In this document: in pieces, positions 45,001 through 64,000 of the stretch
Layout of the letters: every line of letters begins with the position of its first letter
How positions within the stretch are numbered: position 1 is the stretch's first letter
NCBI GenBank assembly: GCA_044892525.1
Contig: CM097887.1
Span: forward strand, 72,478,001-72,542,000
Direction: 5' to 3'
DNA: 64,000 bases
From: Schmidtea polychroa
Lineage: Eukaryota
Made by a program: the position numbers and the translations under genes
The notes under the pieces: model-generated
What the model was told of the DNA's origin: nothing
The model's database searches: none
The model's input: the letters and a program-made list of their open reading frames with translations, nothing else

Positions 45001-46231
45001 ATCCGAGCTGAGTCCATTCAACTTAGTGTCTGAGACCATCCGATGCCCATTGGCCATATCCCTGTCTCTTAATACTATCTACGCACCAGAAAAATTTAGA
45101 TACTGTTATTATTATATTACAGAAGCTTTTTAACGAAAGGTGAGAAGAAAAGGACGAACTTTGCTATCAAACATGTAATTTAGTAAAACATAATTATACA
45201 GGTATCATAAGTAAATACGAATGTATACAACAATTAAAAATAAATTATTACTGTTAGTTCCAAATGCATGATCGCCAAATTGAAGTGTTTGTCCAAGTGA
45301 ATTATACGAAGTGTTAGAAAATATGAATGGGTTGTATTGAGTAGTCTATTAGAGTGAAAAAGTAACAGTCAAGTTTTTGTAAAAAAATTATTAAAACTAC
45401 CTATTAGAGTGAAAAAATAACAGTGAAGTGTCCTCTGAGAAGGACCTTTATAGTTTTATGTTTGCGCTTTTAACCAATCACAGTCGAGTAAGCATGTTGT
45501 ATTTTCCAAAATTTTTGTATAATTTTAAAATTTAGTTCCAATCATTTTGATTATTTTGTTTTAATTTTCAACTAAATTGTTCAATTTTCTTTTACATTAT
45601 TTTATTTTCTCGCTCTGAATGGTTTATGGATCACTCTTTTCGGTCTTGTGTTTTCTAACTTATCTATCGTTTGCTACTTTTTGCGTTTGTAATTTTAAAT
45701 ACCTTTGTTTTTATTTATTCTTATCTTATCTTGTTTAATTTGTTTTATTTAATGTTTTATATTATTTAACTGAACTTCTTGCTTTTGCGTGCTGTTTAGG
45801 TTTCTCTGTCGACAATTCACTGTAAGAAAAGAATTAAAATGGAAATCCTATTCTAAGAAAAATGAAACTTTATTTTGATTCTTAGCACAACAATAAATAT
45901 ATTTCATAAAAAACTATTTTTAATTGATTAGGTCTAATAAAAGAACTCCTATACAAAGAACATTATTATCAACAACTGCCCACACTCATCCCGTTTCTAG
46001 TCTCAGCACTATCGGAACTCACAATGCACACAGTTTATTAAGTTTGAGTACTGACGGTAAAATGTGCACATGGAGAATGGAAATGCTCAGTCAACCGATA
46101 GAAAGTTTTCAATTATCAAACTCAAAAAGTAAAGAAATAACTTCAACTTGTATGGAATTTCTTAACAATGATAACAAATTTGTTGTGGGCGGTGAAGATG
46201 GAAATGTTTATTTGGCTTCTCGAATCGGAAG
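36052..46231 (+). CDS. DYNC1I: Cytoplasmic dynein 1 intermediate chain, 5' part; exons ~36052-36237, ~36299-36429, 36476-36547, 40641-40794, 40841-41158, 45932-46231; remaining exons not in the window
   Basis: [34 protein letters not shown]...[28 protein letters not shown]...[31 protein letters not shown]...[17 protein letters not shown]. Phases are consistent; the intron 1 boundaries are less certain. Confidence 0.9.
37424..38784 (+). mobile_element. Decayed Tc1/mariner-family transposon
   Basis: Inverted repeat ATAAGTCTCCGTCTCTAAAACTAAAATAAAACAACA at about 37505 and 38735-38768; remnants [20 protein letters not shown] and [14 protein letters not shown]. Confidence 0.85.
39053..39363. mobile_element. 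piggyBac-type MITE
   Basis: TTAA followed by CCACTTGCGCTAT; inverted ATAGCGCAAGTGG just before the N gap. Confidence 0.7.
39364..39515. other. Assembly gap (N run)
   Basis: 152 N bases. Confidence 1.
43100..43540 (+). pseudogene. piggyBac (PGBD-like) transposase C-terminal remnant
   Basis: [17 protein letters not shown] motif and a Cys-rich tail (CYKQL...ICIQCF) across frames. Confidence 0.55.
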
Positions 46232-46599
46232 GTGAGAAATTAATATATTATTATTATTTTATTTTATTATTAATATTATTATTTATTTTATTAGTATTAT
46301 TATGTTTTCTATTTTCATTATTAATCTATTATTATTTTTATTATAAGAAAACGCCAATCAAACATTCTTTTCACGATATTTTTCGATAGTTTTCCTGTCA
46401 TCATCAAGTGGGATATAATAACTCATTAAATTAAGGATTTTAAACAAAATCAATACATACAATATACAAACATTATTTTAAAACATTTAAAATACAAGTA
46501 TTCACTGCATTCTGCACATTAATTTTCGGATTCAACGAGTTTATCAATAACGCCTAACAAATTACACGTTCCAAATAATTATCGAAAATTTTTAATAAA

Positions 46600-47447: not shown

Positions 47448-47614
47448 CGTTGAAAAAATCATCACATGTTCAATTTCGGGCTTTACGGGTTGTCGCCTTG
47501 TCAGATCAAGGATTATCGTCATCATCAGGATTATTATGATCGGTTTGTTTCTCATACTACTGATATACATTTAGTAATTTTATACACATTTATATACATC
47601 GCTTTTTGTCGGTT

Positions 47615-48339
47615 TTAATTTTGTCGTTTCTTTTTAGGGTTTTTCTCTCGGATTCGCATTAATTTAGACTCCGCTTTAATGACTCTATGTCGAAGTTCCG
47701 GCAACGTTTCTAGTTGTCTATCTTTCTCCTGGACCTTGTCTGTCAAGTGTCTTATCTCTCTTTTCAAGGTTTTTATCTCCTTCTTCTTCTCTTTCAGGTT
47801 CCGTTCCAGTTCCAATTGTAGGAAATCATTTTCCTCTGGGTCGTTTGTCTTTGAGTTTTGTTTCTGCCGTTTTGTTTCTATTTCTCGATATTTATTGTTC
47901 CATTTTTCCATTTCTGCGTTTTCCTGTACTTTTACTTCCAGCTGGTTTTCTAGTTCCCTGATAGTTTCCTGTCGTTTCCTCGCTTCCATCTTCCAGTAAT
48001 CTTCGATCACTTCGTTTTTGCCTTGAGACTGGCTCTTTCCTGCCATAATTCTTCCGCGATCTTCTCCCAATTTCTCCCTCGCTTTCTTTGATCGTGAAGC
48101 CATTCATTTTCCTCCTCTACCTCTTTCTTTACTTCTTCTAACAAGGTATATTCTTTTTTCAATACTTTAATCATTTTTCGATTATCTCTCCATCTTTCCA
48201 CTAATCTTTCGTTTTCTTGTCTCTCCTCTTGTAATTCTTCCTTGATAGTTTTCTTCCTCTCCACTTCTTCTACTTCAATTTCTCCCTCTTCTAGCTCGAT
48301 TATAGATGTTATGATGGGTCGTCCGTTTTCAGTGTTCAT
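47615..48339 (-). CDS. Coiled-coil accessory protein (~241 aa after restoring one A at 48015-48019)
   Basis: ORFs 48007-48339 and 47615-48103 join as ...SLKAK-NEVIEDYWKME... with one added A; E/K/R-rich heptads. Confidence 0.65.
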
Positions 48340-48513
48340 TTTCTATAATATATACATAATTAATAATTGCGCTATAGTGCGGCTTATACGTATACATCTA
48401 TATGTAATTATATAATCGGGGTTACAGTCCCGTAAATATTTTTATCGTACTATTAATTTTTTTGTTGGGATACAGGTCCCGATTTTTATATTTTTTATCT
48501 TTTCTATTTATCT

Positions 48514-49551
48514 TTATACAAAGGTCTCTTCCTGACCTACATACCCTTCATCGCTTTCTATTGACGTTTGTAGTTGTATTGCGATGGGGTCGAATGGGAT
48601 GTAGTACCGGGGAATCTGCGCTCTAAGCTCCTGAACTTCGTCTCTTAGCGCTCTTGACACATTGAGTTCCTCGTCCAGCAGGTATGTTAGATACCTGGTT
48701 TCGTCGTCCCTTACTTCGATCTGTTTTTCTAACTCTTCCGCTTTTTCGCCGTTCTCCCATTTTTTGATCTCCTTTTCGAGGTTCTTGATATTTTCGTCAT
48801 ACATCTTTCTCTCGTTTTCCAATTTCTTGTTCTTACCGGCTAGCACTATATTCCTTTGTTCTAGTGGCCCCTTATAGCCGTTATTGTCTCTTTCAAGGTC
48901 TGCCACCTTATTTACGAGTTCAACGATTCTACCTGACTGTTGCAGGATCATCTCTTCCATGGCGGTATTCTCCTGTTCCTTCATAGACAGTTTCATGGCC
49001 AGATGCCTTTCAAATTCCACGGCCTTGGTCTGCCAGGTTTGACTTCTAGCGGCGATTTTTCGGAGCCTTCTTAGCTCTTCTCTCTGATCCAGATTTTCTT
49101 CCCATTTCCCTTGTTCACTCTCGTATTCCAATCTCTGCGGCAATTCTCTCATTTCTTTTTTGATTTCTCGATGTTGTTTTTTCCACTTTCTGGCTTCTGC
49201 TAATAGTTGGCGGGTCTTTCTTTCCTCCTTTTGTTTTTCTATTTCCCGCTTCTTATTCTCATCAGTGAGTCTTTTTCTTGACTCCTGTACCAGTTGCTTC
49301 AGGTAATGCCCGTGTGCCTCTTGCCTGGTACTTTCTAATGCTGACCATTTAGCGGCTCTTTTGCAGGCCTCGGCCTCCTCCCGTAAATTCTGCACTAACC
49401 ACTGGAACTGGTGGTTTTCCCATTCTCTCGCTTCTTCGAGGAAATTTCGCGTTTGGTTTGATAATTGTGCCATCACTTTGGCCCATCTTTCTCGGTGCAC
49501 TCTGCCGATCCTCACTCCGCTGCTTGGGACTTCGGTTCGTTCCTGTGTCAT
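48514..49551 (-). CDS. 345-aa coiled-coil accessory protein, unknown function
   Basis: Intact ATG-to-stop ORF, charged and helical, between AT-rich spacers. Confidence 0.75.
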   Translation of the reverse strand: MTQERTEVPSSGVRIGRVHRERWAKVMAQLSNQTRNFLEEAREWENHQFQWLVQNLREEAEACKRAAKWSALESTRQEAHGHYLKQLVQESRKRLTDENKKREIEKQKEERKTRQLLAEARKWKKQHREIKKEMRELPQRLEYESEQGKWEENLDQREELRRLRKIAARSQTWQTKAVEFERHLAMKLSMKEQENTAMEEMILQQSGRIVELVNKVADLERDNNGYKGPLEQRNIVLAGKNKKLENERKMYDENIKNLEKEIKKWENGEKAEELEKQIEVRDDETRYLTYLLDEELNVSRALRDEVQELRAQIPRYYIPFDPIAIQLQTSIESDEGYVGQEETFV

Positions 49552-49773
49552 TTTTGTCTGAATAACGATATTATCAACTCAACGTCGCACATTTATATTT
49601 GTTCTATTATTTATTTATTGTTCCCATTCGACATAGGTGGGTTGTTTTTAGAAGTTTTCCGCTTAAGTTTACCTTTAGTGAATTTGGGGATTTTTCCTAC
49701 ACTATTATATAATATTTTACTGGATATATACGCCGATATTTACAATTTAGTATATACAAAATTATTCGTCTCT

Positions 49774-51161
49774 CTACTCAGTCCTACTCTTCCCGTCTCG
49801 CCTCACCACTATTTTTATGTATATAGTGTCGTTTCTCGTCATGTCTTCTACTTTCCGCTGTAGGATGAAATTCGGTGCTCCGGTTGCTGGTCCTTCTTCT
49901 TCCAAGGGCCTTTGGTAACATACGAGGTTTCCCGCTGTATGGAAACTCTGTTCATGTATACTTTGATGGTTCATCATTGCGAGGTCTATTTTTGCTTTGA
50001 ATGGCCATTCTATTAACTCGTCGTATAGCCCTTTGCACATCAAGAAGAATACTGAGAAATGCGTTCCGTATGCACTTCCATCCCCGTTGTGGTATGCTTT
50101 CATTTTCATTTTATACCCGTTTTTCCATGAGTAGAATGCTGGACTTAGTAATGTTGTATCCTTTCCATTTCTCGCTCTCTGCATCTTTTCTTTTACTCCC
50201 GTTATTTTCCATAGGTATGGAGCCGTTGGTATTAATTCGTTGAGGTTCAATTCGCTTACTTTTTGATGTAGTTCTTTCACCATAATGTTGCTAGTTTCCA
50301 CTAGATCTGTCTGTATCTTTGTACTTGTTCTTGCCTCTTCGAATGCTTCCTTTTCTAGCAATAGCTCTTTTACCAACGCTTTTAGCGAGATCATTTCTTT
50401 TTCTATGTTTTCGGTTTTCCTTTCGTTTTCTTGTAATACAGTTGACCATATTTCCGCGTGTGTTGATACGTTTTCTGCTAGATGTTGGGGTAATTCTCCT
50501 CGGTGTAATTGTTTCTGACATCCCCATTTTCCTAGCACACACGTTATCTTTTTCCTTTCACATTCTCTGAGATGTTGAGCGAGTTTTATTACTCCAGATT
50601 TATCGCATTTATTGGGACATTCTCCTCTGAATTCCGCGCATACTTTTTCCTCTTGTAAATTATGATGTTGACTAGTTAATTTTCTTCGGGTATCGGTCTC
50701 TCCGCAATATTCACATTTTTCTAACCTTTCTATGCATCGACTTTGATGCTCTTCCTCTTCTTTGCTTTAATCTCTTCCTGGCAACGTTCGCATTGACTGA
50801 TTTTATACTCACACTTCTCTATATGTTGCTTCACTCCCCATATCACTCCTCGCCAATTGCACGGGGTGTTTTTACATCCTAAATTTGCATTTAACATATC
50901 TTTCACAGCTGCTTTATCTTCGTTTGTATCTCCCAAACTTGTTATCATGGTTTCTTTACATACTGGGCACCATTGTGGTCCCTTCTTTATTATCTCCTCT
51001 ACACATTCTTTGCACATTCGACATCCGCATCTGGTTTGGTGAGGTTCTTTTAATAAGCTCTTGCATATTCCACACGTTACATGGTTGTGTATTCGAATTG
51101 TGGTGGACTTTCTGACTTGTTCGACAATCTCTTTGAATTCTTCTCGTTGTCGCTTATCCAT
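49774..51161 (-). CDS. Full-length TRAF-family protein (RING, TRAF zinc fingers, coiled coil, MATH), ~462 aa, one 1-nt frameshift at 50761-50763
   Basis: RING CGIC...CGCRMCKEC...CPVC; ZnF HIEKCEY..C..C, H..RC..RLEKCEYC, CPNKC...HLREC; MATH YLWKI...SPAFYSWKNGYKMKMKAYHNGDG..YGTHFSVFF..WPF. The intervening frame 50760-50539 is open and in frame with ORF 49774-50538. Confidence 0.9.
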
Positions 51162-51251
51162 TTCTATAATTATATATATACATATATTCGTTACTGGTAC
51201 AGTTTCGTATTTTTATTTACAGTTATTTACATTTTTTGTTTTAGGTTATAT

Positions 51252-51635
51252 TTATTGGCTGGAAGAGTCGGCCTCTTGTCCGCCCTCTTCCCTACTGGTT
51301 AACCATTCTGACCAGTCTTCTATCTCCTCTCGCTCCATCTCTTCAGCGATTCTCATTAACTCCTCTTCCTGTCCCTGGCTGTATCGCGTTATTCGCTCTA
51401 TTTCTTGCTGCATTTGCTCCATTTTTATTCGTTGGTCTTCGATTATTCTTACATAACTGAAGCCTTTATTTAAACTTTCGACTAAGCTTCTTTGTACAGC
51501 GAGTCCTTGTTCCTGTAAATTCGAAATCACTTGAGTTAACATTGCACATTGTTGTTTCCACATCTCTTCGGTTGTCGTACTGTGATTTACTTCCTCGCCT
51601 ATTCGCTCCATTCTTAATTTATATATACTTTTCAA
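51252..51635 (-). CDS. 127-aa coiled-coil/acidic accessory protein
   Basis: ATG-to-stop ORF with a helical middle and acidic C-terminus. Confidence 0.6.
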   Translation of the reverse strand: MKSIYKLRMERIGEEVNHSTTTEEMWKQQCAMLTQVISNLQEQGLAVQRSLVESLNKGFSYVRIIEDQRIKMEQMQQEIERITRYSQGQEEELMRIAEEMEREEIEDWSEWLTSREEGGQEADSSSQ

Positions 51636-51779
51636 CCCTTATCCAATTTTATTTTTATATTATTTATCCCCATCATTATATAATATTGATACCGCGCTTA
51701 TATAAAAATATAGAATACTGTTATATAAATAAATATTACCTACTTACTTTTTACAATCTATATACAGTCATAATCCTTT

Positions 51780-53908
51780 CTATATTCGTGAGTTTGGAGG
51801 GCGCTGAGCATTCCAGGCCTCCACCCACTGTTCCTGCTTGATTTTACTTGGTCGTTCTACACGATGTTGAAAATTTCTCATTCTGGTCATCTCTAGTTCT
51901 CCGCGATGCCGTCTATCTTTGATTATTTTTATTGTCCCCCCCGTTATGATTAAAAAGGCCCCTGTTATTATTATTCCGCTGATCCACATCATCTGTTTTA
52001 CGCTTATAATTTCCAATTTTTCCTTGTTCGTTATTGTTGATATTGTCTCTGTACTTTTCGGGTTACTGCCTTTGCTATTTCCTTTTATCATTCCTCGTAT
52101 TCTTGCTATCTCCTCGTTCATACCTTCCTTTGCCATCTTTTGTATTTTTTCCATCTCTTCCTCTGACACATAATTGTCCTGATATTTCTCACTGGTTTTT
52201 TGCGTTTTCCTTGCTCATCTTTTTCATCATTGAATTTTCTTTTCCTCCCTCTTTTCCCAGGGTATCGTCGACATTCTCTTTCTGGACCGTTTCTCAGGAT
52301 ACAGACCGTATATTCCTTTGGTGGTTGTTGTTGCGTTACATATTGTAGACAGTTTTCTCCTGGTCCTAGCCTTGAAATACACACTTTGTGCTCTTTTCTT
52401 GGTTGAAGCTGTGTTATCACTATTTCACCTCCTTTACTCAGGTGTACCTCTTTCCATTTGACTTTTGTTATCTTCTTCCCGTTTCGATGTTGGTACGCTT
52501 CTTGTATTCCCACTTCCGTTATTGGTTCTGCATCTTCATTTTTTAACACTAGTCTCTGATAAGCTCTAGACATACATCTTCCTAATATACACCTTTCTTT
52601 TAAATCCCATTCTTCTTTTAGATCCCATTGTTGCTCTTGTACTTGCTTTTTCTTTTCTTGTTTTAGTTCTTCCTCTTTGTTGTCCTTATTTTCCGTTTCT
52701 TTGGCTTCTTTTATCGTTCTCATTCCTCCCTGGGCTGTTATCATTTCCACCATTGTTAATACGAGTATCATTATCATCATATTTGTCTCCATTTCTTTGT
52801 TGGTAAAAAGTAGGCATACCCTCTGTTTTCCAATATTCGTCTTTTCTTCTTGCTTCATTCGGTTTCCCGGGTTATCCTCTTCCTTTTTCGTACTTGCGTT
52901 GTTATTTTCTTGATTATTCTCCTCTGGTTTCTCGTTCTCTTTATTCCCGTTTCGACTCTTCTCATTATTATTGTCGTCTTTATCGTCTTTATCTTTATCG
53001 TCTTTATCTCCCCCGCTGTCGTTTAAAATGTCGTCCTCGACATTTATATCGTTCAACAATCTGCGATATGCTGTTAGCACTCTATTTCTTGCTAATTTTG
53101 CTTCGAATTCGAACTCTTTTCTGCCTGTTGCTGCATGTCTCTTTCTATTCCATTCTTTTACCAGTTCTCTCAATTGTATACGACGATGTTTTCCGATTCG
53201 CTTTTGTTCGTTTAGATTTTGCGTGAATTTGAGGTCTTCTCTGTTCAATACGATCATTATGATTTTCGGAGTTCCTCCTTTTGTTAATGTATTTTTAACC
53301 ATGGCATTTTCTCCGTTTTCATAGAACTCATTTATATTTATTGCATATTTATTACTTTGCGGTATTTTCCAAGTTAACAGTAACTTCATGGCTTCTAAGT
53401 TTTTCCGTATCGTATTCCACTGGAATTGTGACGTATTTTTACAGATATTTTCCACCTCAGTTTTTGTAGCATTTTTACAAATGAATCTAATCATTTCCAG
53501 GTTTGGTTGTATTGTTGCCCAATCCATGGTAGAATTCCCTTCGTTTGATATTTCGTCAAGCCTTGATCCTGATTGATGTAATATATGTAATGTTTTCGGG
53601 TGTATATTTGTTATTGCTGCATACATCATTGCTGTTTCTCCTTGTTCATTTTTTGCATTAGATTCTTCTCCTAAGTCTTTAAGAATTCTTATGATGGTTA
53701 TCGCTCTGTTTTCCTTTGCTGCTAGTATTGCTTGTTGTAATGGTGTTCTTGAATCTTTTGTTGGTATGGTGAACGCTAGTGGTATGAATGTTTTTATTTT
53801 ACCTATGTCTAAATTTGTAGTTTGATCTCTTGCGTAGGTATGTACTGTTTTTATTATTTTTGTCAGTATTGCTTCATCAGATAAATCTCGCATTTCCTCA
53901 AAGAACAC
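51780..53908 (-). CDS. Ankyrin-repeat module followed by an internal signal sequence, ectodomain and TM (frameshift near 52211)
   Basis: ANK motifs RTPLQQA, GETAMMYA, GNSTMDWA; hydrophobic MMIMILVLTMVEMITA; ITQLQPRKEHKVCIS (FN3-like); TM WISGIIITGAFLIITGGTIKII in ORF 51780-52169, joined by one added A. Confidence 0.75.
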
Positions 53909-53968
53909 CTCTTTGGCTTTGCGTATTATTATCTCTTGGTCTGAGTCGTTGTTATATCAGTTGTTATA

Positions 53969-55870
53969 TCAAGTCGTTGTTATATCAGTTATTATTTGAT
54001 CGACTTGTTCCTCAGACTCTCTGATTTTTGCTTTCTTTGTTTTTAACTTTTTCTTGTTTGAACTATTAATGCGTTCCTCCGCCGTTAGAACTTGAATAAT
54101 ACTGAGGTAAGTTTCTCGAATGTTATTCATATTTTCCATCATATATAAAACACACACGGTTTCCCAATATTTTACTTGTACTCTATCGGTGAATTGAGAT
54201 ATGGATTTTTCAAAATTAGTGATTCGCTTTCTGATCAGGTGTTCGTCTTTATGGTTTGAGAACTTTACACCTCGCTGTAATAGTTGATTTGGGATTTCAA
54301 ATAGGTGATGTCCTCTCATTGCTTCTCTCATCAAGGTGTTTTCTCCTTTGGTAAATGTTTCGTTTATGTCTACCATATAATCGTTTTTGATCGGGTTTCT
54401 CCACGAAATTAGTACTCCAGTAATTGATATTAATTTCCCTTTGATAGCGGTTAATAGCCCGTCGTACATGTTTCCTATTTCTCTGTTATCCTCGTATGAC
54501 AATAGATCTACTAAGGTTATGAATGCTCCGGTGCTTTTTCCTTCGATTGCATGATGTAGTGCATTTTTCTGATCGTGATCTTGTGTGGTTATCTTTGATC
54601 CGGTTTCCAGCAACGCTATTATGATATCCTTAGTTTTATCTCGATTTGCTGCTATCATTAGTGGAGTGTAACCTTGGTTGTTTTCTTGATCTGTCGAAAT
54701 GTTACAATCGCGAAATGCTTCAATCGTTTCTAGTATTTGTTCATTATTACCAACCTTTAAAAGCTTGTGCAGTGGTGTATCTCCATAGTGGTCTGTGATT
54801 GTGAATAATATAGGCCATTGGCTTTTAACTACCCTGAGCAATGGGTGTATTCTTTCTCGATTTGCATAGTTTTCTATCATTGTTAGCAGACCTCCCAATA
54901 TCTCAAAATCTAATCTGTCTTTTGCCCATCCGGGTATTTTAGCCTTTACCTCTTTTATGATTTTCTCTGCCTCTGAGGGTTGTAATCCCAATCGATTGTT
55001 TGTTGGTTCATTTATCTGCTGTAACATATTTATTCTATACGTTTGTGATCTTGTTGTTAAGGTACGTCCTTCTGGCTGACTGGTGGCTGTTTTCGGTATT
55101 GGCTTACATCGTGCCACATTTACATATATTGGCCTTGTAAAGGGATTGTTTACCAATCGTACTCTTACGTTAGTTTCTCCGACGAATAAAATCTCATACG
55201 GTCCTTTGCCGTTTCGTTGCAATTTTTTGGTGGTTCCTGGAATTAATTCTGGTGTTTCGATCATCACCCAATCACCTGTTTGGAACGTATGTTGTTTGAC
55301 GTTTTTCTTCCTATCGTGTAGATCTTTGTAACTCTCTTGATAAAACTTTATATTTAATCCCGCAGTTTCCCAGATTTCTTGCATTCTTTCCTTGAACTTG
55401 GTTACATAATCGTCTATTTCCATATATTGAGATATGGGTGGCTGATACTCCAAGTCCATTGGCATATTACATTCTCTGCCGTACATCAACTTGAACGGAC
55501 TCATCTTTGTGGAAGCGTGAATTGACATTCTGTAAGCCATTAAACACAATTTTATATACTCATCCCAATCTCGTTGGTGACGGTCTACGTAATTTAATAA
55601 CATCTGAATGAGCGTTCCATTGAATCTTTCTGTCATACCATTTGTTTGTGGATGATATGGTGATGTTCTCAGTTTTGCAATCTTGAAGTAGTTGGTTACT
55701 TCGTTCATTATTTCACTCATGAAATTTGTTCCTTGATCGGTTAGTATTTGTTTTGGTGTTTCATACCTACAGCATATTTCCTCTACCAGTATTTTCGCGA
55801 TTGTTTTTGCTTTCTGGTCCGTCATAGCGAATGCTTCAGGGAATTTTGTTAAATAATCTGTGATCACCAA
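53969..55870 (-). CDS. Integrase core and GPY/F domain fused in frame to ankyrin repeats
   Basis: VITDYLTKF, ILTDQGTNF, NGMTERFNGTL, GKGPYEI; then YGDTPLHKLL, GYTPLMIAA, QKNALHHAI. Confidence 0.92.
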   Translation of the reverse strand: MVITDYLTKFPEAFAMTDQKAKTIAKILVEEICCRYETPKQILTDQGTNFMSEIMNEVTNYFKIAKLRTSPYHPQTNGMTERFNGTLIQMLLNYVDRHQRDWDEYIKLCLMAYRMSIHASTKMSPFKLMYGRECNMPMDLEYQPPISQYMEIDDYVTKFKERMQEIWETAGLNIKFYQESYKDLHDRKKNVKQHTFQTGDWVMIETPELIPGTTKKLQRNGKGPYEILFVGETNVRVRLVNNPFTRPIYVNVARCKPIPKTATSQPEGRTLTTRSQTYRINMLQQINEPTNNRLGLQPSEAEKIIKEVKAKIPGWAKDRLDFEILGGLLTMIENYANRERIHPLLRVVKSQWPILFTITDHYGDTPLHKLLKVGNNEQILETIEAFRDCNISTDQENNQGYTPLMIAANRDKTKDIIIALLETGSKITTQDHDQKNALHHAIEGKSTGAFITLVDLLSYEDNREIGNMYDGLLTAIKGKLISITGVLISWRNPIKNDYMVDINETFTKGENTLMREAMRGHHLFEIPNQLLQRGVKFSNHKDEHLIRKRITNFEKSISQFTDRVQVKYWETVCVLYMMENMNNIRETYLSIIQVLTAEERINSSNKKKLKTKKAKIRESEEQVDQIITDITTT

Positions 55871-58800
55871 TATATATATATATTCCCTCTATCGGATTCT
55901 GGTAGTGGACCGACTACGTCCATAGATATCATTGTCATTGGTTCGGCTGGTACTGGCATTGGCTTTAAAAGTGCTTTCCATTTTGTTCCCGTGTTTTTTC
56001 TGGTTGCGCAAGTTATACAATTTTTCACCCATTCCGTTACATCTTCGGTCAATGTGGGCCAAAAATACTTTTGTTTCATTCGGGCTAGCGTCTTCTTCGA
56101 TGACATATGTCCTCCGAGTCTTCCGTCATGGTATTGCGTTAGCAAATCTTTACGTCTATTTTCTGGAATGCACATCAGTCTTTTTTCTCCATCCATTATC
56201 AATAACCAGTCCTTTTCTAGTATATATCGATGTCGATGTTTATCCATGTGCTCTTTTAACTTTTGATCTTTCTCATATACTTCTGCTTTCCCTGTTTTCA
56301 CATATTCAATGATTTGCTTCAACTCTGTATCCTCTTGTTGGTCTTTCCGTAATTGGCAAAAATCTAAATCTTCCGCCACCATCAGACATATTCGTTGCAT
56401 TTCGTGATCTACTAAATCTGGAAAGATAAATCTTGACATGCAATCTGCATTGGCATTCGCTCTTCCCGCTTTGAATTTTATGAACGGTGAATATTCTTGT
56501 AACTGCATTGCCCATCGCATCAATCTGCTTGAAGCTTCTTTGTGCTGTCCGAGCCATACTAATGGTTGGTGATCTGTTGTGATACATATTTCGTGTCCCC
56601 ATAATAAATATCGAAAATGCTTAATCGCTTGTATTATTGCTAACGCTTCTCTTTCTGTTACTGAATAGTTTTTCTCATGCTTTTTAAACGTTCTGCTGTA
56701 ATAACCGATTACTCTCTCCTTTCCTTCTTCATCGAGTTGTCCCAGTATTGCTCCGGCTGCATATCCGCTTGCATCTGTTGCTAATAAAAATGGTTTCTTG
56801 AAATCTGGATGTACTAGTATTGGGGCTTCAATCAATTTATCTCGTAAGGTCTCAAATGCTTTTTGTTGTTCTGTACCCCAAATAAACGAAATGTCTTTTT
56901 TCACTAATTCTTGAATTGGTTTCGCAATGCCTGCGTAGTTTTTAATGAATTTCCGATAATATCCGCATAATCCAAGGAATTCTTGAACTTGGGTAACTGT
57001 CTTTGGTGGTGGACATGTTTTTATTTTCTCTATATTTCTGGGATCTGGTTCTTTACCTTTTGCTGACACTATGTGTCCTAAAAACGTAACTTTCTCTTTT
57101 GCCCAATCACACTTTGATGGTTTGAGTTTCAATTTCCATTGTCGTAATCGAACGAACACGTTTCTGATATCTTCCAAATGTTGTTCGAATGTTGCTGAAT
57201 ATATTAATAAATCATCAATGTATACCATACACTGCTTGATCCCGTGTGTGACGAAATTCATGCATCTCTGAAATGATGCGGGGGCATTGGTCAGTCCAAA
57301 CGGCATTTTCCTGAATTGATATAGGTCTCGACCCAATGTGAAGGCCGTTTTCTCTTTGTCTTCCTCTTTGACTTTGATCTGCCAATATCCGCTCTTTAGA
57401 TCTAAAGACGTAAAATATGCGGCCCCCTGTAGCATAAGTAACATCTCATTGATGTCTGGTAACGGGTATGTGTCTCTTTTCGTTACTGCATTTAGTTTCC
57501 GATAATCGATGCAAAATCTCTGGGTACCGTCTTTTTTCTTCACCATGACTACTGGAAATTGCCATGGTGAGCAACTTGGTTCGATCACTTTTGCATCCAA
57601 CATCTTTTGTACTTCTGCTTCCGCTATCTCTTTTTGTTTTTCCGCTAGTTTGTATGGGCGTAATGCAATCGGGGTTTCGTCTATTAGGGGTATTGCGTGT
57701 AACGTGACATCGCATACTGCCAAATCTAAATCCGAAATAGCGAATATATCTTTATATTCTATTAATAATTGTTGAAGTTTTCCCCTTTCATTCTCTGTTA
57801 GCAAGGTACTATCAATTATCCATAATTCGTCATCTGTGGTTGATTCGTTCGTGGCTTTTGGTAACTCGATATCCATCATGGGTGTTAATCTACCCAATCG
57901 TTCATTTTCATATATGATTTTATCTTCCTCCTCGAAATTCGTGATGTTGATTGGTATTTCTCCTTCTTCATTTATCGTTATTATTTCTCGTGCTAAGGGT
58001 AATTCTCGTCTTTTTTCAAAGGATTTACTTGGTTCAAAGATAGCTTCTCCTTCCATTCCAGTATCTACTTTTATTTGACATATCATCTGTGATTTTGCTG
58101 GTACAATTATTTTCTCCGGGCATCTGATTATTGCGTTCATCTTGCATATTCTACCCATTTTGTCTTTTAGACACATTGTTGTTAAGTCGATTACCACTTC
58201 TTTGAACAATTCCGGCATTAAATCTGTTCCGATTATACATGGTTCACTCAGTTTGGGTATTACTGCCAGATAGGTTTCGATTTCATTATCTTGATATCGT
58301 AACGTCGTCCACCATCTTCCTACTACGTCTACGGTTTCTTTACTGCATGCAATAATATGAATAGTTGTTTGTTCAATATCTTTCCAATATTTACTGGGTA
58401 TTTGGTTTATTGCTATTGCTGATACATTCGCTCCAGTATCTATCATTGCGCTCGTCTCTTTCCCGTTGATTTGGATCATGACTGTTACTGCTGCTCCTCC
58501 TGGTGAACTCATTACTGCTATTGTTCTGACGTCATCAGCTTGGTCTACGCTTTTCGTTCTTCGGGTCGGCATATAGTTCATACCTGGTTGACTTGGTAAT
58601 TGTGGATACATATTTTGTGTCATGGTCAAAGCTGCTTGCTGTCCAACGATATCTGGTGGTATATAGCTCCCGTTAGCTATCCAGGTATTTGTTTTTTCTT
58701 TCTCCCAAAATGGTGCTGTTTCTATTTGCCTTTCGTTCGGGTTTCTGCTTGGATACGGGTATTTGTCATTCCCGTTATCATCATCATCACTATCACTGCT

Positions 58801-59181
58801 GTTTGATCGATTTCTAAATCTGTCTAGAAATTTTGGTTTGTTCTTTTTCAGTTGCACCCTTGTTGCTTCCTCATACATTGTTTTCCGAAATCGTCTGCCG
58901 ACTTCCTCGTCAGTTCCTTTTATTTTTGTCAGTATTTTGATTAATCGTTTTATTCTGTGTATATCTTTAGAATGACCGTGCAACACCATTGTTTTCGCCA
59001 AAAATGGTAGGAAGCCTACTATCAATTTCCAATTTACTTTCTTTTCCCTCTTATAGATATCAAAACAAGCTAACATTTGAGTCAATATTACTCTGACAAT
59101 CTGAATAATTAAGATGATTCCCAATATTCCGGCCATCATTTGACCGAACACTAGAAACCTTCCCCACATTGCTTTCATCAT
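55864..59181 (-). CDS. Env TM anchor and tail, aspartic protease, RT, RNase H, integrase zinc finger
   Basis: TM FLVFGQMMAGILGIILIIQIVRVIL; MIDTGANVS; RFCIDYRKLN, LDLKSGYWQI, MPFGLTNAPASFQ, YIDDLL; LATDASGYAAGAILGQ; H...GGH...CITC; MDVVGPLP. A TA-dinucleotide expansion at about 55870-55882 shifts the frame into the integrase ORF. Confidence 0.96.
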   Translation of the reverse strand: MMKAMWGRFLVFGQMMAGILGIILIIQIVRVILTQMLACFDIYKREKKVNWKLIVGFLPFLAKTMVLHGHSKDIHRIKRLIKILTKIKGTDEEVGRRFRKTMYEEATRVQLKKNKPKFLDRFRNRSNSSDSDDDDNGNDKYPYPSRNPNERQIETAPFWEKEKTNTWIANGSYIPPDIVGQQAALTMTQNMYPQLPSQPGMNYMPTRRTKSVDQADDVRTIAVMSSPGGAAVTVMIQINGKETSAMIDTGANVSAIAINQIPSKYWKDIEQTTIHIIACSKETVDVVGRWWTTLRYQDNEIETYLAVIPKLSEPCIIGTDLMPELFKEVVIDLTTMCLKDKMGRICKMNAIIRCPEKIIVPAKSQMICQIKVDTGMEGEAIFEPSKSFEKRRELPLAREIITINEEGEIPINITNFEEEDKIIYENERLGRLTPMMDIELPKATNESTTDDELWIIDSTLLTENERGKLQQLLIEYKDIFAISDLDLAVCDVTLHAIPLIDETPIALRPYKLAEKQKEIAEAEVQKMLDAKVIEPSCSPWQFPVVMVKKKDGTQRFCIDYRKLNAVTKRDTYPLPDINEMLLMLQGAAYFTSLDLKSGYWQIKVKEEDKEKTAFTLGRDLYQFRKMPFGLTNAPASFQRCMNFVTHGIKQCMVYIDDLLIYSATFEQHLEDIRNVFVRLRQWKLKLKPSKCDWAKEKVTFLGHIVSAKGKEPDPRNIEKIKTCPPPKTVTQVQEFLGLCGYYRKFIKNYAGIAKPIQELVKKDISFIWGTEQQKAFETLRDKLIEAPILVHPDFKKPFLLATDASGYAAGAILGQLDEEGKERVIGYYSRTFKKHEKNYSVTEREALAIIQAIKHFRYLLWGHEICITTDHQPLVWLGQHKEASSRLMRWAMQLQEYSPFIKFKAGRANANADCMSRFIFPDLVDHEMQRICLMVAEDLDFCQLRKDQQEDTELKQIIEYVKTGKAEVYEKDQKLKEHMDKHRHRYILEKDWLLIMDGEKRLMCIPENRRKDLLTQYHDGRLGGHMSSKKTLARMKQKYFWPTLTEDVTEWVKNCITCATRKNTGTKWKALLKPMPVPAEPMTMISMDVVGPLPESDRGNIYIYW

Positions 59182-61589
59182 GTTTGACGTGGCTTGTTGA
59201 AAATGATCTGGTGATAATAATAATTCATAATTTTACCTGATTGAAAATTTGTTCCTCCGGTTATGGTAACCATATTTGATAAAATGGATTCTCGCCTTGC
59301 TGGGAATAGTACGTTTAGTCGTGCGGTTTCTAAATCCTCTGGTGAGTACATACCTGCTTTTGACACATCAATTGGTTTGAAATCTTGTTCGGTTGCGAGT
59401 TCTATTAATCCAAACTTTTTAGGTTCTTGTACTTCAGTTTTTACTGGTAACATTATCCATTTCCCATCGGGTTTTTCATAATATGGTCCGTATGCATTTG
59501 AACAGTTAAAGGTGTTCGGATAAAATCCAATTGGGTTCATTATCCTAGTGACGGGTTGGACAAATCTGTTCCGCCCTTTGTAACTGATTTCTAATTCGTT
59601 TGCACATTTCCCTGGCGGGATTGTGGGTTTTCTTGGCATTCGCGCAAACGTCTTAGTACATGCATATGTATACATCACCTCTCCTACCATTCTGCCAAAA
59701 TGTCCATCCGGTAACGGGAGTGATGGCATCGTGTTATCTGGGTGTGTTATTGCGATGGCTAATTTTGTTTTTAGTATCTCTTTATTCAATGAACAGTCAT
59801 TTTGTATGAGATCGTAATATACTTTTTGCATTGTCGTTTGTCCTCGATGAAATAAAAAGTCCATTTTGTTATTGGCATAAAGGTACAACTTCACATCCTC
59901 CGTTGATACTTTTCCTACTGCTCGGTCTATTACTTGTCTTGACATGTAAATGCCTGCGTAGTTCGTCCGATATACTATACTGTCACATTTGGTGGTCTCT
60001 TTTTCTCTGATGAATCTCATACCGATATCTGGATCATCTGTAATTAGTGCAGTTGGTGTTTTTTGTGTTGTGAGTCTTTTTTCTTTGGGGGATGGTGGAA
60101 CTGGTTTTCCATTTTGCATCCTTACGTTTCCATTTTCTTCATCGTCGTCTTCGTTTTCGTAAATTTCTCCTTTTACTTCGTTGAACAAAGCACTTTTTAA
60201 CAATTGGAGTCGGCATTTTTGGGTGTTAGCTTCATATATTATGGTCGAAATTCCCGTCCTACACACGTTTTCCGTAGCTCTGCATGCTGGGTTGGTTTTC
60301 ATTTGATAATTATTTGCGTCGAATTGCGCTTCGTATTCTTTCAACTCCACTGTGTAGGATTCGATTACTACTACCCCCGATATCACTTCTCCTCTGATCG
60401 TGTATGTGCCTCCGTTACATGATCCATCAGTTGATTTTACTCGTCCGGCTACATAGATGCTTTCAGTCTTGATCATTCCGCTTTGTCCGTGTATTGTTAC
60501 CCCGTCTCTGATTCTCATTGCTCCAGTTCTAAAAAGCTCTTTACAGTCTTCTCGTTGTATAGGTACTATTTCTTTATCTAATCCGGGTAATATGAGAGTT
60601 GAATACGAATATTGCCCACAGTAATATGCCAACACCTTCTTTGATACTACGCATTCTCTTGCTTGTGTTCTAATAAAATCTGATTCTTGGTATACATGAT
60701 AGGAGACTTTCTTTTTCACGACATCCAATTTATTCGGAGATGCTTGTCTACATTCCTCTATATCCCTCAAGGAATATTTTTCTCCAATTATCGAATTGTC
60801 GCAGTCGTAAATTGTAAACCCTAATGCTCCGCTTGTGCATAGCATCCATATCATCATGGTCATCATTAGTGAATTAATCGACGCTTTTCTACTGGCGGGA
60901 TCTTTCATTGGCAATTCCCATTCTATTTCGTTTAGTAATTTCTTCAACCTGATTTGCATTGATCTTTCTTGCTCGTTTTTTCGTGGTGCTTGTATAAGCC
61001 TTTTCCACCCGCCGGCGCGGATAATATGTGGTTCGATTGTATTTTCAATGATTGTCACCGTCATTTCAACGTGGTTTGCAAATTGTTTGTTAGGTATTTT
61101 TCTCGCTGCTAATCCCATCAAATTGTACATTAAATACGTTAGTACCACTAGATGATGTTCGTCGTCGTTCGTGTTTACGGTTAATTGTTCAATTACCTTC
61201 CTTGTCTCCTCCCAATCTGTTTTCGTGGTTTTCGTTTTTTCTTTGATTAATTTCGGAATTATTCCGGATATTGCATTCCATAGTTGTCTGGCGTCTACGC
61301 TTGCTACTTTTCGTTGCCATAACCGTCTCAATTGCGTGTTTGTTATTATTAACATATCCTTTACTAGTTCTCGTATCCATTTTTCGCCTCTTTCAATCGT
61401 TGGTTGGGCCTCTTTTAGGTCCCACACTATTTTATCCAATTTTTCCAATCTGATTTGTCCTTGCTCTTGTTTTAGTTGTTCTCTGGTTTTAAATTCGGGG
61501 TTTTCTCCTTGTTTCTTGGGTCTTCCTTTTGCCCGTTTTTCCATCGTTGTTCCAGCTTCTCTGGTCATTTCATAATTCGGGTTTCTCAT
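59178..61589 (-). CDS. Putative Bcl-2-like helical domain, signal peptide and gB/chuvirus-like (class III) fusion glycoprotein ectodomain
   Basis: BH2-like EPHIIRAGGWKRL; signal LMMTMMIWMLCTSGALG followed by FTIYDC; Cys-patterned ectodomain with GEVMYTYAC...CANELEISY...FVQPVTRI...C...W typical of chuvirus-like glycoproteins. One added A at 59231-59234 links it to the TM-PR-RT ORF. Confidence 0.8.
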   Translation of the reverse strand: MRNPNYEMTREAGTTMEKRAKGRPKKQGENPEFKTREQLKQEQGQIRLEKLDKIVWDLKEAQPTIERGEKWIRELVKDMLIITNTQLRRLWQRKVASVDARQLWNAISGIIPKLIKEKTKTTKTDWEETRKVIEQLTVNTNDDEHHLVVLTYLMYNLMGLAARKIPNKQFANHVEMTVTIIENTIEPHIIRAGGWKRLIQAPRKNEQERSMQIRLKKLLNEIEWELPMKDPASRKASINSLMMTMMIWMLCTSGALGFTIYDCDNSIIGEKYSLRDIEECRQASPNKLDVVKKKVSYHVYQESDFIRTQARECVVSKKVLAYYCGQYSYSTLILPGLDKEIVPIQREDCKELFRTGAMRIRDGVTIHGQSGMIKTESIYVAGRVKSTDGSCNGGTYTIRGEVISGVVVIESYTVELKEYEAQFDANNYQMKTNPACRATENVCRTGISTIIYEANTQKCRLQLLKSALFNEVKGEIYENEDDDEENGNVRMQNGKPVPPSPKEKRLTTQKTPTALITDDPDIGMRFIREKETTKCDSIVYRTNYAGIYMSRQVIDRAVGKVSTEDVKLYLYANNKMDFLFHRGQTTMQKVYYDLIQNDCSLNKEILKTKLAIAITHPDNTMPSLPLPDGHFGRMVGEVMYTYACTKTFARMPRKPTIPPGKCANELEISYKGRNRFVQPVTRIMNPIGFYPNTFNCSNAYGPYYEKPDGKWIMLPVKTEVQEPKKFGLIELATEQDFKPIDVSKAGMYSPEDLETARLNVLFPARRESILSNMVTITGGTNFQSGKIMNYYYHQIIFNKPRQT

Positions 61590-62595
61590 TATCTGTTCTT
61601 GGCAATGAGCTGTCGTTGTTTCTCAGCCATTCATTCCATTCGTCTATTATTTTGTCCGTTTGACCTTCTGGTGTTACTTTTGTTGGTCCTTTTTGTCGTT
61701 GGAATTGTTCGTCGGTTTCGGTTTCTGTTGTATTATCGATAATCTCCTCGATACTTAGCTTATTTGGCTGCTGATAGCTAGTTGACGGTTGGCTTGTTGT
61801 CCATATTTCCGCCCCTGTCGGCCATCTTACCAGAATTGGTGATCTTTCTCCAGCTCCTTCATCGCTGTCTTCTAATATGATTTCCTCGATTTCCTCAGTT
61901 TCATTCGATTTACTCGCCACTTTGTTAGGGCTTGGTGTACTCAAGCTACCTTTCGTGGGTTTACTGGATTTACTTTTCCTTTTGATTGGTTTTCCCAATG
62001 TTTCTGCCATTGTCAATACATTGATCTCCCCCAATCTCATGGGTGTTATTCCGACATCTGCATTATCATCTAACGATTTTCCGAATAGTTGTAGGTGAAA
62101 TGGAGTTTCGTATGCTAATTTCTTTTTTAACTCTCTGATCTTTGTTGTTGGATGTACTTCTGTATCCTCAATGCTTTTGTCGGGATACTTGACTCGGATA
62201 CGATACCTTTCCTGGGTATCTTGTGCCCACTCTTGGTTTCTCCATTTTCTAATAATTTGTTCTAGCTGTTCTGGGTACCATTCGTTATATTGTCGGTATT
62301 CCTCAATCGCTTTCGCCATTTCTCTTAGATTGTGGATATTCTCTGATGTCTTTAGGATGATGTTAGCCAATGCTACTACTTGTCGTTTTTGATTTTTTGC
62401 TCCCGTTGCTAAGATATCACCTAATTGTTTATATCTTTCCTTCTCTTCTCGTTCTCGAGCTTCCATCGCTTCCTCGCTGTCCATATCGGCATATTCGCGT
62501 TCTTTCTTTCTCATCGCATGAATATGTCTGGTTTCCGTTTCACTTTCGGACGTGACGTCCGTTTCGCTTTCCTCGTCGTCGTTCGTGTTCACCAA
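61570..62595 (-). CDS. Acidic repeat, helical region and ubiquitin-like domain (polyprotein segment)
   Basis: ESETDVTSESE; Ubl-like RYRIRVKYPDKSIEDTEVHPTTKIRELKKKL...LQLFGKSLDDNADV (about 62008-62208). Confidence 0.65.
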   Translation of the reverse strand: MVNTNDDEESETDVTSESETETRHIHAMRKKEREYADMDSEEAMEAREREEKERYKQLGDILATGAKNQKRQVVALANIILKTSENIHNLREMAKAIEEYRQYNEWYPEQLEQIIRKWRNQEWAQDTQERYRIRVKYPDKSIEDTEVHPTTKIRELKKKLAYETPFHLQLFGKSLDDNADVGITPMRLGEINVLTMAETLGKPIKRKSKSSKPTKGSLSTPSPNKVASKSNETEEIEEIILEDSDEGAGERSPILVRWPTGAEIWTTSQPSTSYQQPNKLSIEEIIDNTTETETDEQFQRQKGPTKVTPEGQTDKIIDEWNEWLRNNDSSLPRTDNEKPEL

Positions 62596-62779
62596 TGTCT
62601 GTTTCTACGAAAATTCCTTTCCTGACTTCCCACTCTTTATTTTCCGCATTCCACATCCTTTCCCAGGGAGTTCGTCTGCAAGATCTAGTACTCAGTTTCT
62701 TTATTTTCCCTTGTAGTTCCTTTTCGTTTAACCATTGTTGATGAATTTCAATTATTTCTACTGATTTTTGGTATAGCGT

Positions 62780-64000
62780 TTACATCCTGTCGCGTATCTC
62801 TTTCTGGTATGTCACATCTCTTGTTCGGAATTCGTCCATTGGCAATATTCTAATTATTTGATGATTATCCCACATTCCCATTTCGCTTAACGAGGTGTCG
62901 TCCTCAGCCCGTAATATTATTTTGTCGTATATCATGACTACATTATCTATCATACCATCGCTACTCTCGCTTCGCACCTTTTCTGTTATCTCTTGGTTTA
63001 TCTTTGATACTAAGTCATCCACCGTACTTTGATTACTCATTTTTATTCGTCGTTTCTCCTCGTTTGGTAACCATATGGTTATTTCCAATCTCTGCGGTTG
63101 CGTTTCTTTTATTCTTCCATATTTGTGGATCAAATTTATGGTTCTCCAATCGCTCATTCTGAGCAATTCTGTATCTCGTAATCGGCTCATTAGTTCATGC
63201 ATAGCTGGAGTTCGTTTTGCTATGAGCAAATCCCAGTTGTCTTCAACTTGTTCTTGGATTTGTTTGATTAATTTATCTAGATTTCGTCGCAAAGTACATT
63301 GTTTTATTTGTTCTAATTTTAGCTTGATATTAAAATCGTATTCGGCCTTGGCGTCCTTCGCCCATTCGTAAACGTTGGCTGGTTGTTTCTCTTTATGCAA
63401 CTTCAATATTTGAGTTTCCCCTGGCCAGATCAATGCATCTATTAGGTGCATGTCTGGTTTAATTTGTTCTCCTTGGTATTGATATAGATACTCTTTCTTT
63501 CTCGAGCTGCCCCAATGTTCTCTTATCCAATCAAAAAGCTCGTCTGTGACTGTACTTTTTATCCATATTCTCTCGAGCTCTTTACTCGTTCCGATTTTTA
63601 TTACATAGCGTGTTGTCTCCGCTTGTTTCATTTTTTCCATATACTTCTTTATTATCGTTTTCTCCTCGCTTGGTATCAAGTCTTTTTCGTTTCTTTCTAG
63701 TTTCATTATCTTTTGTAAGAAGCGTTTATATGGTATAAGGTCGATGAACTCCTGGTTTCTTACTACCACTGGAAGTATTTCCTTTACTTGTTTTATCGCT
63801 TCCTCTCTTTCTTTTCTCAATTTCATCTCGATATTCTCATCTTCACTTTCACTTGTCACGTCGCTTTCACTCTCGTCTTCATCTGCTCCGATCTTCTCTC
63901 TTAGTTGTTCGATATTTTCATTTAACTGCAATGTTTCTCCACCCAGGCTACTCACGTAGTCCTCATCGTCATCTGTTGACAATACCTTCTTTGTCGTCCT
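62780..64000 (-). CDS. Polyprotein segment with acidic repeat and two ubiquitin-like domains; open to the window edge
   Basis: ESESDVTSESE; Ubl1 ...YQYQGEQIKPDMHLIDALIWPGETQIL (about 63395-63610); Ubl2 LEITIWLPNEEKRRIKMSNQSTVDDLVSKI...MIYDKIILRAEDDTSLSEMGM (about 62843-63091). The frame stays open for about 60 codons past the TAA at 62780. Confidence 0.7.
   Translation of the reverse strand, partial: RTTKKVLSTDDDEDYVSSLGGETLQLNENIEQLREKIGADEDESESDVTSESEDENIEMKLRKEREEAIKQVKEILPVVVRNQEFIDLIPYKRFLQKIMKLERNEKDLIPSEEKTIIKKYMEKMKQAETTRYVIKIGTSKELERIWIKSTVTDELFDWIREHWGSSRKKEYLYQYQGEQIKPDMHLIDALIWPGETQILKLHKEKQPANVYEWAKDAKAEYDFNIKLKLEQIKQCTLRRNLDKLIKQIQEQVEDNWDLLIAKRTPAMHELMSRLRDTELLRMSDWRTINLIHKYGRIKETQPQRLEITIWLPNEEKRRIKMSNQSTVDDLVSKINQEITEKVRSESSDGMIDNVVMIYDKIILRAEDDTSLSEMGMWDNHQIIRILPMDEFRTRDVTYQKEIRDRM

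Follow-up and report, generated by a model that had tools for sequence, protein, structure and literature searches.

A giant Burro-type Gypsy element of Schmidtea polychroa carries a gB-type env in one frame with gag and pol

In Drosophila errantiviruses and vertebrate retroviruses, env has an ORF of its own at the 3' end, served by a spliced RNA, and its product is of the F-type or class I, not gB-type. Like them, the element described here is an LTR element with gag, pol and a gene for a fusion glycoprotein. In the Burro elements described by Arkhipova & Yushenova (2019; PMC6431247), BCL2, env and PR lie in one ORF; the ORF1 products of 4,873 and 5,140 aa carry env between BCL2 and PR. Burro and GYPSM1 are giant Gypsy-like LTR retrotransposons that occur in Schmidtea mediterranea and Dugesia tigrina (PMC6431247, citing Grohme 2018 and Jurka 2007), and that article does not present BIR as a feature of every Burro element. 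BURRO1 RNA was up after smedwi-2 RNAi (PMC8532177). More recently, GAG-ENV-POL elements of flatworm, nematode and bryozoan were catalogued (Chary & Hayashi, eLife 2026; PMC13524379), some with gB-type ectodomains that have a TM domain on either side (two TM). That article words the arrangement as 'three ORFs'; in the part of it accessible to us 'polyprotein', 'in-frame' and 'single ORF' have 0 occurrences, and a single polyprotein is not discussed. A literature search, with most subscription papers outside its reach, found no study on the processing or particles of these elements.

The window analyzed here is a stretch of 64,000 nucleotides of the Schmidtea polychroa contig CM097887.1. A preliminary description, made from the sequence letters, had read an env upstream of the protease, in the same frame as pol, and had called the resulting topology unusual. 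We found the layout to be real but known since 2019 for planarian Burro elements (PMC6431247), with the GAG-ENV-POL order also in print (PMC13524379). We consider it probable that the stretch is the middle of a single Burro-type gene of ~4,700 codons, whose product would be threaded through the ER membrane with Env lumenal and Pol cytosolic. The features of the element, from its 5' to its 3' end, are as follows; those numbered on L031 belong to the same element and lie outside the window.

L031:5235-9059, 5' LTR, ~3.8-kb; the primer-binding site is also outside the window
L031:4271-4843, RING-finger ORF
L031:1-1932, gag with CCHC knuckles
47466..64000, minus strand, internal region of a giant Gypsy LTR retroelement of the Burro kind, extending past the window
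62780..64000, minus strand, polyprotein piece between Gag and the Bcl-2-like domain; frame change near 62590
61570..62604, minus strand, next polyprotein piece, acidic/coiled-coil, no Pfam match; frame change near 61580
60993..61373 (limits approximate), minus strand, Bcl-2-like domain with BH2-like GGW motif (Pfam Bcl-2, E 0.026)
60819..60866, minus strand, internal signal-peptide-like hydrophobic segment just ahead of the Env start (KD 1.51), basic residues upstream
59140..60818, minus strand, gB-type (class III-like) fusion glycoprotein ectodomain (PF24664), split near 59233 by a frame change
59083..59139, minus strand, Env transmembrane helix (KD 2.53; in 12/12 relatives), then basic residues
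58483..59082, minus strand, ~200-residue linker from TM to protease, predicted cytoplasmic tail, single frame in the window
58207..58482, minus strand, aspartic protease with DTG (RVP, E 3e-9)
57067..57543, minus strand, reverse transcriptase core with YIDD (RVT_1, E 3e-37)
56491..56880, minus strand, RNase H (RT_RNaseH, E 1e-39)
55649..56169, minus strand, integrase zinc finger and core, interrupted by a shift of frame in the (TA)n run near 55880
54509..54730, minus strand, first ankyrin block (Ank_2, E 4e-13)
53462..53725, minus strand, second ankyrin block (Ank_2, E 4e-8), same frame, beyond two stops near 53965
51780..52780, minus strand, polyprotein C-terminal end: signal-like segment (52724-52780), ~250 residues, TM-like helix (51921-51977), basic tail
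49774..51212, minus strand, distinct ORF further downstream, coding for a TRAF-like protein (RING, zf-TRAF, MATH) and divided in two in the window

The whole element measures ~30-kb, with an internal region of ~22.6 kb and two LTRs of ~3.8-kb each, and near-identical neighbouring matches are spaced 26.4 kb apart, as expected for the internal region plus one LTR. The LTRs have TG...CA ends and are accompanied by a primer-binding site, a conserved PBS-like motif being present in 8 of the 10 copies checked. The start of the 3' LTR was found at 28/29 other loci (from the best 30 of 599 candidates) and is missing from the window copy, which is truncated at ~47466 and lacks its final ~0.8 kb as well as the 3' LTR. 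A joint at 47502-50920, seen in two runs presumed to be RNA, is without splice-site ends and lies at a short similar stretch, and was read as a deletion variant. The window copy is a decayed, 3'-truncated insertion that cannot make the polyprotein.

The PR-RT-RH-IN order and the gypsy-type H2C2 integrase place the element in Ty3/Gypsy (Metaviridae), and its total of ~30 kb, with an internal region of >20 kb, is of Burro/GYPSM1 size. By the published description of Burro (PMC6431247), it is a Gypsy LTR element of the kind known from planarians under that name: both are about 30 kb, with long LTRs and one ORF of 4,700-5,100 codons; both carry Gag with three CCHC knuckles, a BCL2-like domain, env and then PR-RT-RH-IN; and in both env matches mononegavirus-type fusion proteins. 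Ankyrin repeats, MATH/TRAF and RING cargo and tandem repeats are also common to the two, but MATH/TRAF here has an ORF of its own, downstream of the polyprotein (one 479-codon frame in 5/9 other copies), whereas it lies inside ORF1 in Burro1 and upstream in D. tigrina. Unlike Burro, the element gave no BIR match among the ORFs scanned (some LTR-region ORFs were outside the scan), and its frame has 4,731 codons. The gB-type env with signal and TM between gag and pol also resembles the GAG-ENV-POL HSV/gB-type errantiviruses of flatworms, including Smed_errantivirus_1-6, in which a Ty3/gypsy pol is preceded by a gB-type env (PMC13524379). Of the six env sequences listed there, that of Smed_errantivirus_5 came closest, with 50 identities in the first 100 aligned residues as counted by eye; an identity of about 50% means that the two belong to separate families and are not one element.

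Pfam matches on the minus strand of the window copy bore out the order that had been proposed, namely Bcl-2-like, gB-type fusion glycoprotein (PF24664), TM, PR, RT, RNase H, integrase and ankyrin repeats. The ORF at 59178-61622 (minus strand, 814 aa) matches PF24664 Monjiviricetes_fusion at model positions 244-518 (E 5e-58), and the ORF at 55864-59232 (minus strand, 1,122 aa) opens with model positions 523-579 (E 1e-8), followed by the TM, RVP, RVT_1, RNase H and Integrase_H2C2. Matches to rve and to ankyrin repeats lie in a third ORF, at 53969-55888 (minus strand, 639 aa). The copy has a stop at 59178 and frame shifts near 59233 and within the (TA)n run near 55880, both of which had been anticipated. 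We checked seven break sites in all (five frame changes and two stop sites), and at each of them between 7 and 9 of the 9 other long copies had an open frame. Positions 53969 and 61589, which had been taken as the limits of the protein, are both further breaks of the window copy that 9/9 other long copies read through; the two stops near 53965 sit in a 12-nt tandem repeat. The env-pol polyprotein of ~2,540 codons first proposed is only the middle part of a frame of about 4,700 codons that begins with gag.

Continuity of the frame was judged on natural copies only. These were the best 30 of 599 candidates, picked by likeness; nine copies were read over more than 20 kb, chosen from 11 that had shown no break along 4.1 kb, and one of the nine is the reference itself. 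Because the copies were chosen by likeness and by being open here, the counts overstate the intactness of the family. Env and its TM were in the same frame in 29/29 other copies, no stop lay at the env/TM site in 28/29, and env, TM and PR lay within one stop-free stretch in 24/29 (each from the best 30 of 599 candidates); a stricter automatic count at the env/TM site gave 27/30 of the same best 30, self included. The integrase site near 55880 was open in 7/9 other long copies. The longest frames in the nine long copies ran to 2,177-4,731 codons, including 4,593 and 4,731, and the span from the Bcl-2-like domain through the ankyrin repeats was unbroken in four of them and broken in five. As in Burro ORF1, the long frame is a single ORF with Retrotrans_gag and zf-CCHC at its N-terminus, upstream of the window, and env in frame between the BCL2-like domain (a weak match) and PR; it extends through the second ankyrin block to what is likely another membrane module. 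Related copies such as these are not independent samples.

Purifying selection runs through the env-pol junction. Over all seven regions from the Bcl-2-like domain to RT, dN/dS was 0.012-0.071 (9 copies), with 0.030 for the Env ectodomain and 0.065 for the TM and the linker of the env tail to PR (9 copies). Among 19 long distant relatives scanned (28-46% identity), 12 had env and protease in a single chain, four of these with gag or CCHC upstream, and protease after env was not seen in the other seven. Since this layout is common to distant relatives, an assembly-wide artefact was rejected as its source. The placement of env upstream of the protease in the frame of pol was in this way upheld by other copies, long frames and distant relatives alike.

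Several parts of the chain were harder to assign. The Bcl-2-like assignment is weak but consistent: Pfam Bcl-2 matched in 4/4 aligned relatives (7e-5 at best, in every case short of the curated cut-off), and a profile against the PDB had Bcl-xL as its top matches (E 0.017); a single-sequence search gave no PDB match, and the AlphaFold model was all-helical at low confidence (pLDDT 47). In the piece at 62780..64000, ubiquitin-like stretches were suspected by eye, but searches gave only a weak PI3K_rbd match (E 0.02) and no PDB match. Neither a Ubl/SUMO-like domain before BCL2 nor a dUTPase-like domain between PR and RT, where there is a ~160-residue spacer, gave a significant match; the published Burro calls came from HHpred, another method. 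The C-terminal module, with a frame change near 52195 in the window and dN/dS of 0.22 (4 copies), matched no family and had no similarity to the comparison sequence P0005, and its segments suggest that it is likely a second membrane protein.

The topology was evaluated by plain hydropathy, not a trained predictor, which placed a signal and a single strong TM ahead of PR in the window and in relatives, and so agreed with the proposal that the enzymes lie on the cytoplasmic side of the Env TM. A signal-like segment was similarly present in 9/10 relatives holding the Env start; that of the window copy is only moderately hydrophobic. The env profile matched herpesvirus gB in 37/37 PDB matches (best E 0.005), and conserved cysteines were noted in the alignment. 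We conclude that an internal signal, a lumenal Env, a single TM and a cytosolic Pol are the likely arrangement, and that the signal segment may double as a tail anchor of the Bcl-2 part.

In the mechanism that we propose, a full-length RNA would be translated as one chain, the internal signal would insert, and signal peptidase would free the N-terminus of Env, while the Gag-Bcl-2 part would stay anchored by the signal until cut. The Env TM would then halt transfer, such that PR-RT-RH-IN-ANK would be made as a cytosolic tail of Env, and the element's own protease would separate the cytosolic parts, probably after clustering at the membrane. Clustering would unite capsid, glycoprotein and enzymes without a gag-pol frameshift or a spliced env RNA. 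As one giant frame places a membrane protein before the enzymes, the latter would likely start attached to it, and a tethering of Pol to the budding membrane is plausible. In the flavivirus polyprotein, a cytosolic capsid on an internal signal, a lumenal glycoprotein and cytosolic enzymes are cut apart by a viral protease. The analogy is one of mechanism only, with no homology claimed, as these are unrelated RNA viruses without RT or integration.

The 1:1:1 output of Gag, Env and Pol that a single chain would give is odd for a retroelement and counts against this model. One genomic frame might instead yield several products, through subgenomic or spliced RNAs or early release, leaving the fused precursor minor and Pol untethered. 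This would suit the large excess of Gag over Pol that retroelements usually require. The 'three ORFs' wording of Chary & Hayashi and the ENV-POL gaps of up to 2,000 nt that they allow (PMC13524379) would suit it too. We think it unlikely, as no stop and no conserved change of frame separates the parts in the longest copies, selection at the protein level is strong in the tail linker, and the in-frame junction recurs among distant relatives.

It is also conceivable, though quite improbable, that the chain makes two membrane passes after the ectodomain or has an unrecognised signal, placing PR in the lumen or Env in the cytosol, so that only some chains would give working Pol or Env. A weaker hydrophobic stretch does lie beyond the TM (58981-59037, KD 1.41), reaching KD 1.5 in 3/12 relatives; the ectodomain has a single N-glycosylation sequon, and some elements have gB-type ectodomains between two TM domains (PMC13524379). 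However, this second stretch is predicted to insert poorly (summed Hessa score of 6.9 vs -0.1 for the TM) and has basic residues on either side, a lumenal domain is in keeping with the 14 cysteines of the ectodomain, against one in the preceding 250 residues, and RT and IN need the cytosol to work.

That env and pol are separate genes with a normal stop at 59178 can hardly be entertained: the window copy and one other copy with an in-frame stop near the site favor it, but the retention of that stop by all copies, named beforehand as the contrary case, was not what we found, since 29/29 other copies (from the best 30 of 599 candidates) keep one frame, which refutes it at the DNA level, and the stop would truncate the glycoprotein before its TM, as the PF24664 model continues in the next ORF.

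The single-chain precursor allows a further, tentative reading, which we regard as possible but doubtful: enzymes would be packaged by membrane tethering of a precursor anchored three times (by the Env signal, the Env TM and the C-terminal membrane protein), with assembly at the ER, enveloped budding and cell-to-cell spread within the planarian, while the Bcl-2, TRAF and ankyrin cargo would sustain the host cell. The layout is striking and already in print, and the interest now lies in precursor processing and enveloped particles. With many young copies, strong purifying selection across env and the env-pol junction, and a host with somatic stem cells, the family suits observational tests.

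The preliminary description had read a glycoprotein (Env) upstream of the protease in one polyprotein interrupted by frame breaks, and this domain order and its breaks proved accurate. The minus strand of 53969-61622 contains three long ORFs. In the first, Pfam detected PF24664 (E 5e-58), a fusion glycoprotein of the Monjiviricetes type; the second carries the rest of that model followed by protease (PR), reverse transcriptase (RT), RNase H and an integrase (IN) zinc finger, and the third the integrase core with ankyrin repeats. Because PF24664 is split between ORF 1 (model positions 244-518) and ORF 2 (523-579), the break near 59233 lies inside one gene, before the glycoprotein's transmembrane helix (TM). 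The second break lies in the (TA)n run within the integrase. Along the long frame, the window's copy has seven breaks.

Breaks in the window's copy (minus strand)
CCHC region, upstream of the window: stop
near 62590, 61580, 59233, 55880 and 52195: frame changes
near 53965: two stops

A search of the same genome, in which 40 of 599 candidates were scored (all 93-100% identical), gave 30 loci including the window's. Env and its TM shared one frame in 29/29 other copies, 28 of which had no stop at the env/TM site, and Env, TM and PR lay in a single stop-free stretch in 24/29. From 11 copies open across the whole 4.1 kb we read 9 over 20 kb each, omitting one internally rearranged copy and one near-duplicate; in this sample, biased towards intact copies, the longest frames ranged from 2,177 to 4,731 codons, and the stretch from the Bcl-2-like domain to the ankyrins was unbroken in 4/9. 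The env-pol single-frame layout is real and well supported at the DNA level. At each of the seven breaks, 7 to 9 of the nine comparison copies read through (one of the nine doubling as the reference), so that the limits 53969 and 61589 of the preliminary description are breaks of the window's copy and do not mark protein ends, and the frame continues past them to as many as 4,731 codons. It opens with Retrotrans_gag and CCHC knuckles, just outside the window.

Domain positions in a natural unbroken frame
Gag start: near codon 120
Bcl-2-like motif: near codon 1,660
Env: codon 1,727
TM: codon 2,287
PR: near codon 2,520
RT: near codon 2,930
IN: near codon 3,290
ankyrins: near codons 3,740 and 4,080
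last TM-like helix: near codon 4,670

Pairwise dN/dS was compared by region in nine copies, with pS of 0.14-0.39; since the pairs are related, the values are descriptive.

Pairwise dN/dS in nine copies
Bcl-2-like part: 0.041
Env: 0.030
TM plus linker: 0.065
PR: 0.013
RT start: 0.012

In four copies, the stretch from RT through the first ankyrin block gave dN/dS values of 0.013-0.065, and the C-terminal part values of 0.16-0.22. This substitution pattern indicates that the env-pol junction is kept as protein.

The polyprotein end (51780-52780, minus strand; dN/dS 0.22) comprises a signal-like segment, about 250 residues that include two short repeats with Cys, and a TM-like helix, and is likely a second membrane protein. 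It had no Pfam match. The relative P0005 likewise closes with two hydrophobic segments, but comparison of this module with P0005 showed no similarity.

The env region had 851 relatives at E<=0.001. Among 19 proteins scanned (P0005 and 18 matches picked mostly by length), 12 carried Env and protease on one chain, six of these with RT as well and four with gag or CCHC upstream; the other seven showed no protease. Some relatives (P0159, P0005 and P0009) had three to six protease-like stretches downstream of Env. NCBI lists the env-pol polyprotein relative P0012 under a Flavobacteriaceae bin, as a hypothetical protein; it is probably eukaryotic DNA inside that bin. Against PDB, the Env profile matched herpesvirus gB only, and weakly (37 matches, best E 0.005). 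The domain preceding the signal matched Pfam Bcl-2 in 4/4 aligned sequences, all under the curated cut-off; the best PDB matches of its profile were Bcl-xL (E 0.017), and its predicted structure was helical, at low confidence.

A full element measures about 30 kb. Upstream lies a 3.8-kb LTR with TG...CA ends, a PBS-like motif and a (TA)n run at the border, and downstream of the polyprotein are a TRAF-like ORF and coiled-coil ORFs. Other copies extend about 0.8 kb beyond 47466 into the 3' LTR, which the window's copy does not.

Further features of the element and its surroundings (L031, DNA beyond the window's 64000 edge)
L031:4271-4843 (-): upstream accessory ORF, coiled coil and C-terminal C3HC4 RING (E 1e-7)
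L031:2870-3690: tandem units of about 117 nt between gag and the RING ORF
47615-49578 and 51252-51638 (-): several coiled-coil ORFs in the intervals between the end of the polyprotein, the TRAF-like gene and the element's 3' end
47502-50920: contigs of two guessed-RNA runs are joined across 3.4 kb; the junction lacks splice-site ends, falls at a short stretch of similarity and is likely a deletion variant
45924-46235 (+): exon-like stretch beside the element's truncated end, resembling a WD40 host gene (labelled by eye)

The LTR at L031:5235-9059 and those of the other copies (L052-L080) were of divergent types, 72-78% identical over the first ~600 nt (one 97%), whereas the internal regions of the same copies were 88-99% alike, hinting at LTR exchange. 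In the genome's own contigs C2 and C1 (G000), two pairs of near-identical matches were spaced by 26.4 kb, the distance that tandem elements with a common LTR would give, and C1 near 186.49 Mb held an array of the element's 3' piece with a period of about 1.5 kb.

Chary and Hayashi (2026; PMC13524379) list gB-type elements of GAG-ENV-POL order from flatworms, nematodes and bryozoans, and the nearest env row there is about 50% identical, by eye. The element also shows the testable features of Burro, the giant planarian Gypsy LTR elements (PMC6431247), apart from BIR, which was not found in the ORFs scanned, and the position of TRAF, here a downstream ORF. It is a new example of an already described kind.

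Three hydrophobic segments lie between Gag and PR: a moderate one (KD hydropathy 1.51) immediately precedes the Env start, the strong TM (KD 2.53) is followed by basic residues, and a weaker stretch (KD 1.41) had an unfavourable insertion score. Among relatives, the signal-like segment was present in 9/10, the strong TM in 12/12 and a second segment reaching KD 1.5 in 3/12. The simplest reading of these segments would place Gag-Bcl-2 in the cytosol, Env in the lumen and PR-RT-RNase H-IN-ankyrin in the cytosol. Signal peptidase and the element's own protease would then cleave the precursor, and Pol may be tethered to the membrane.
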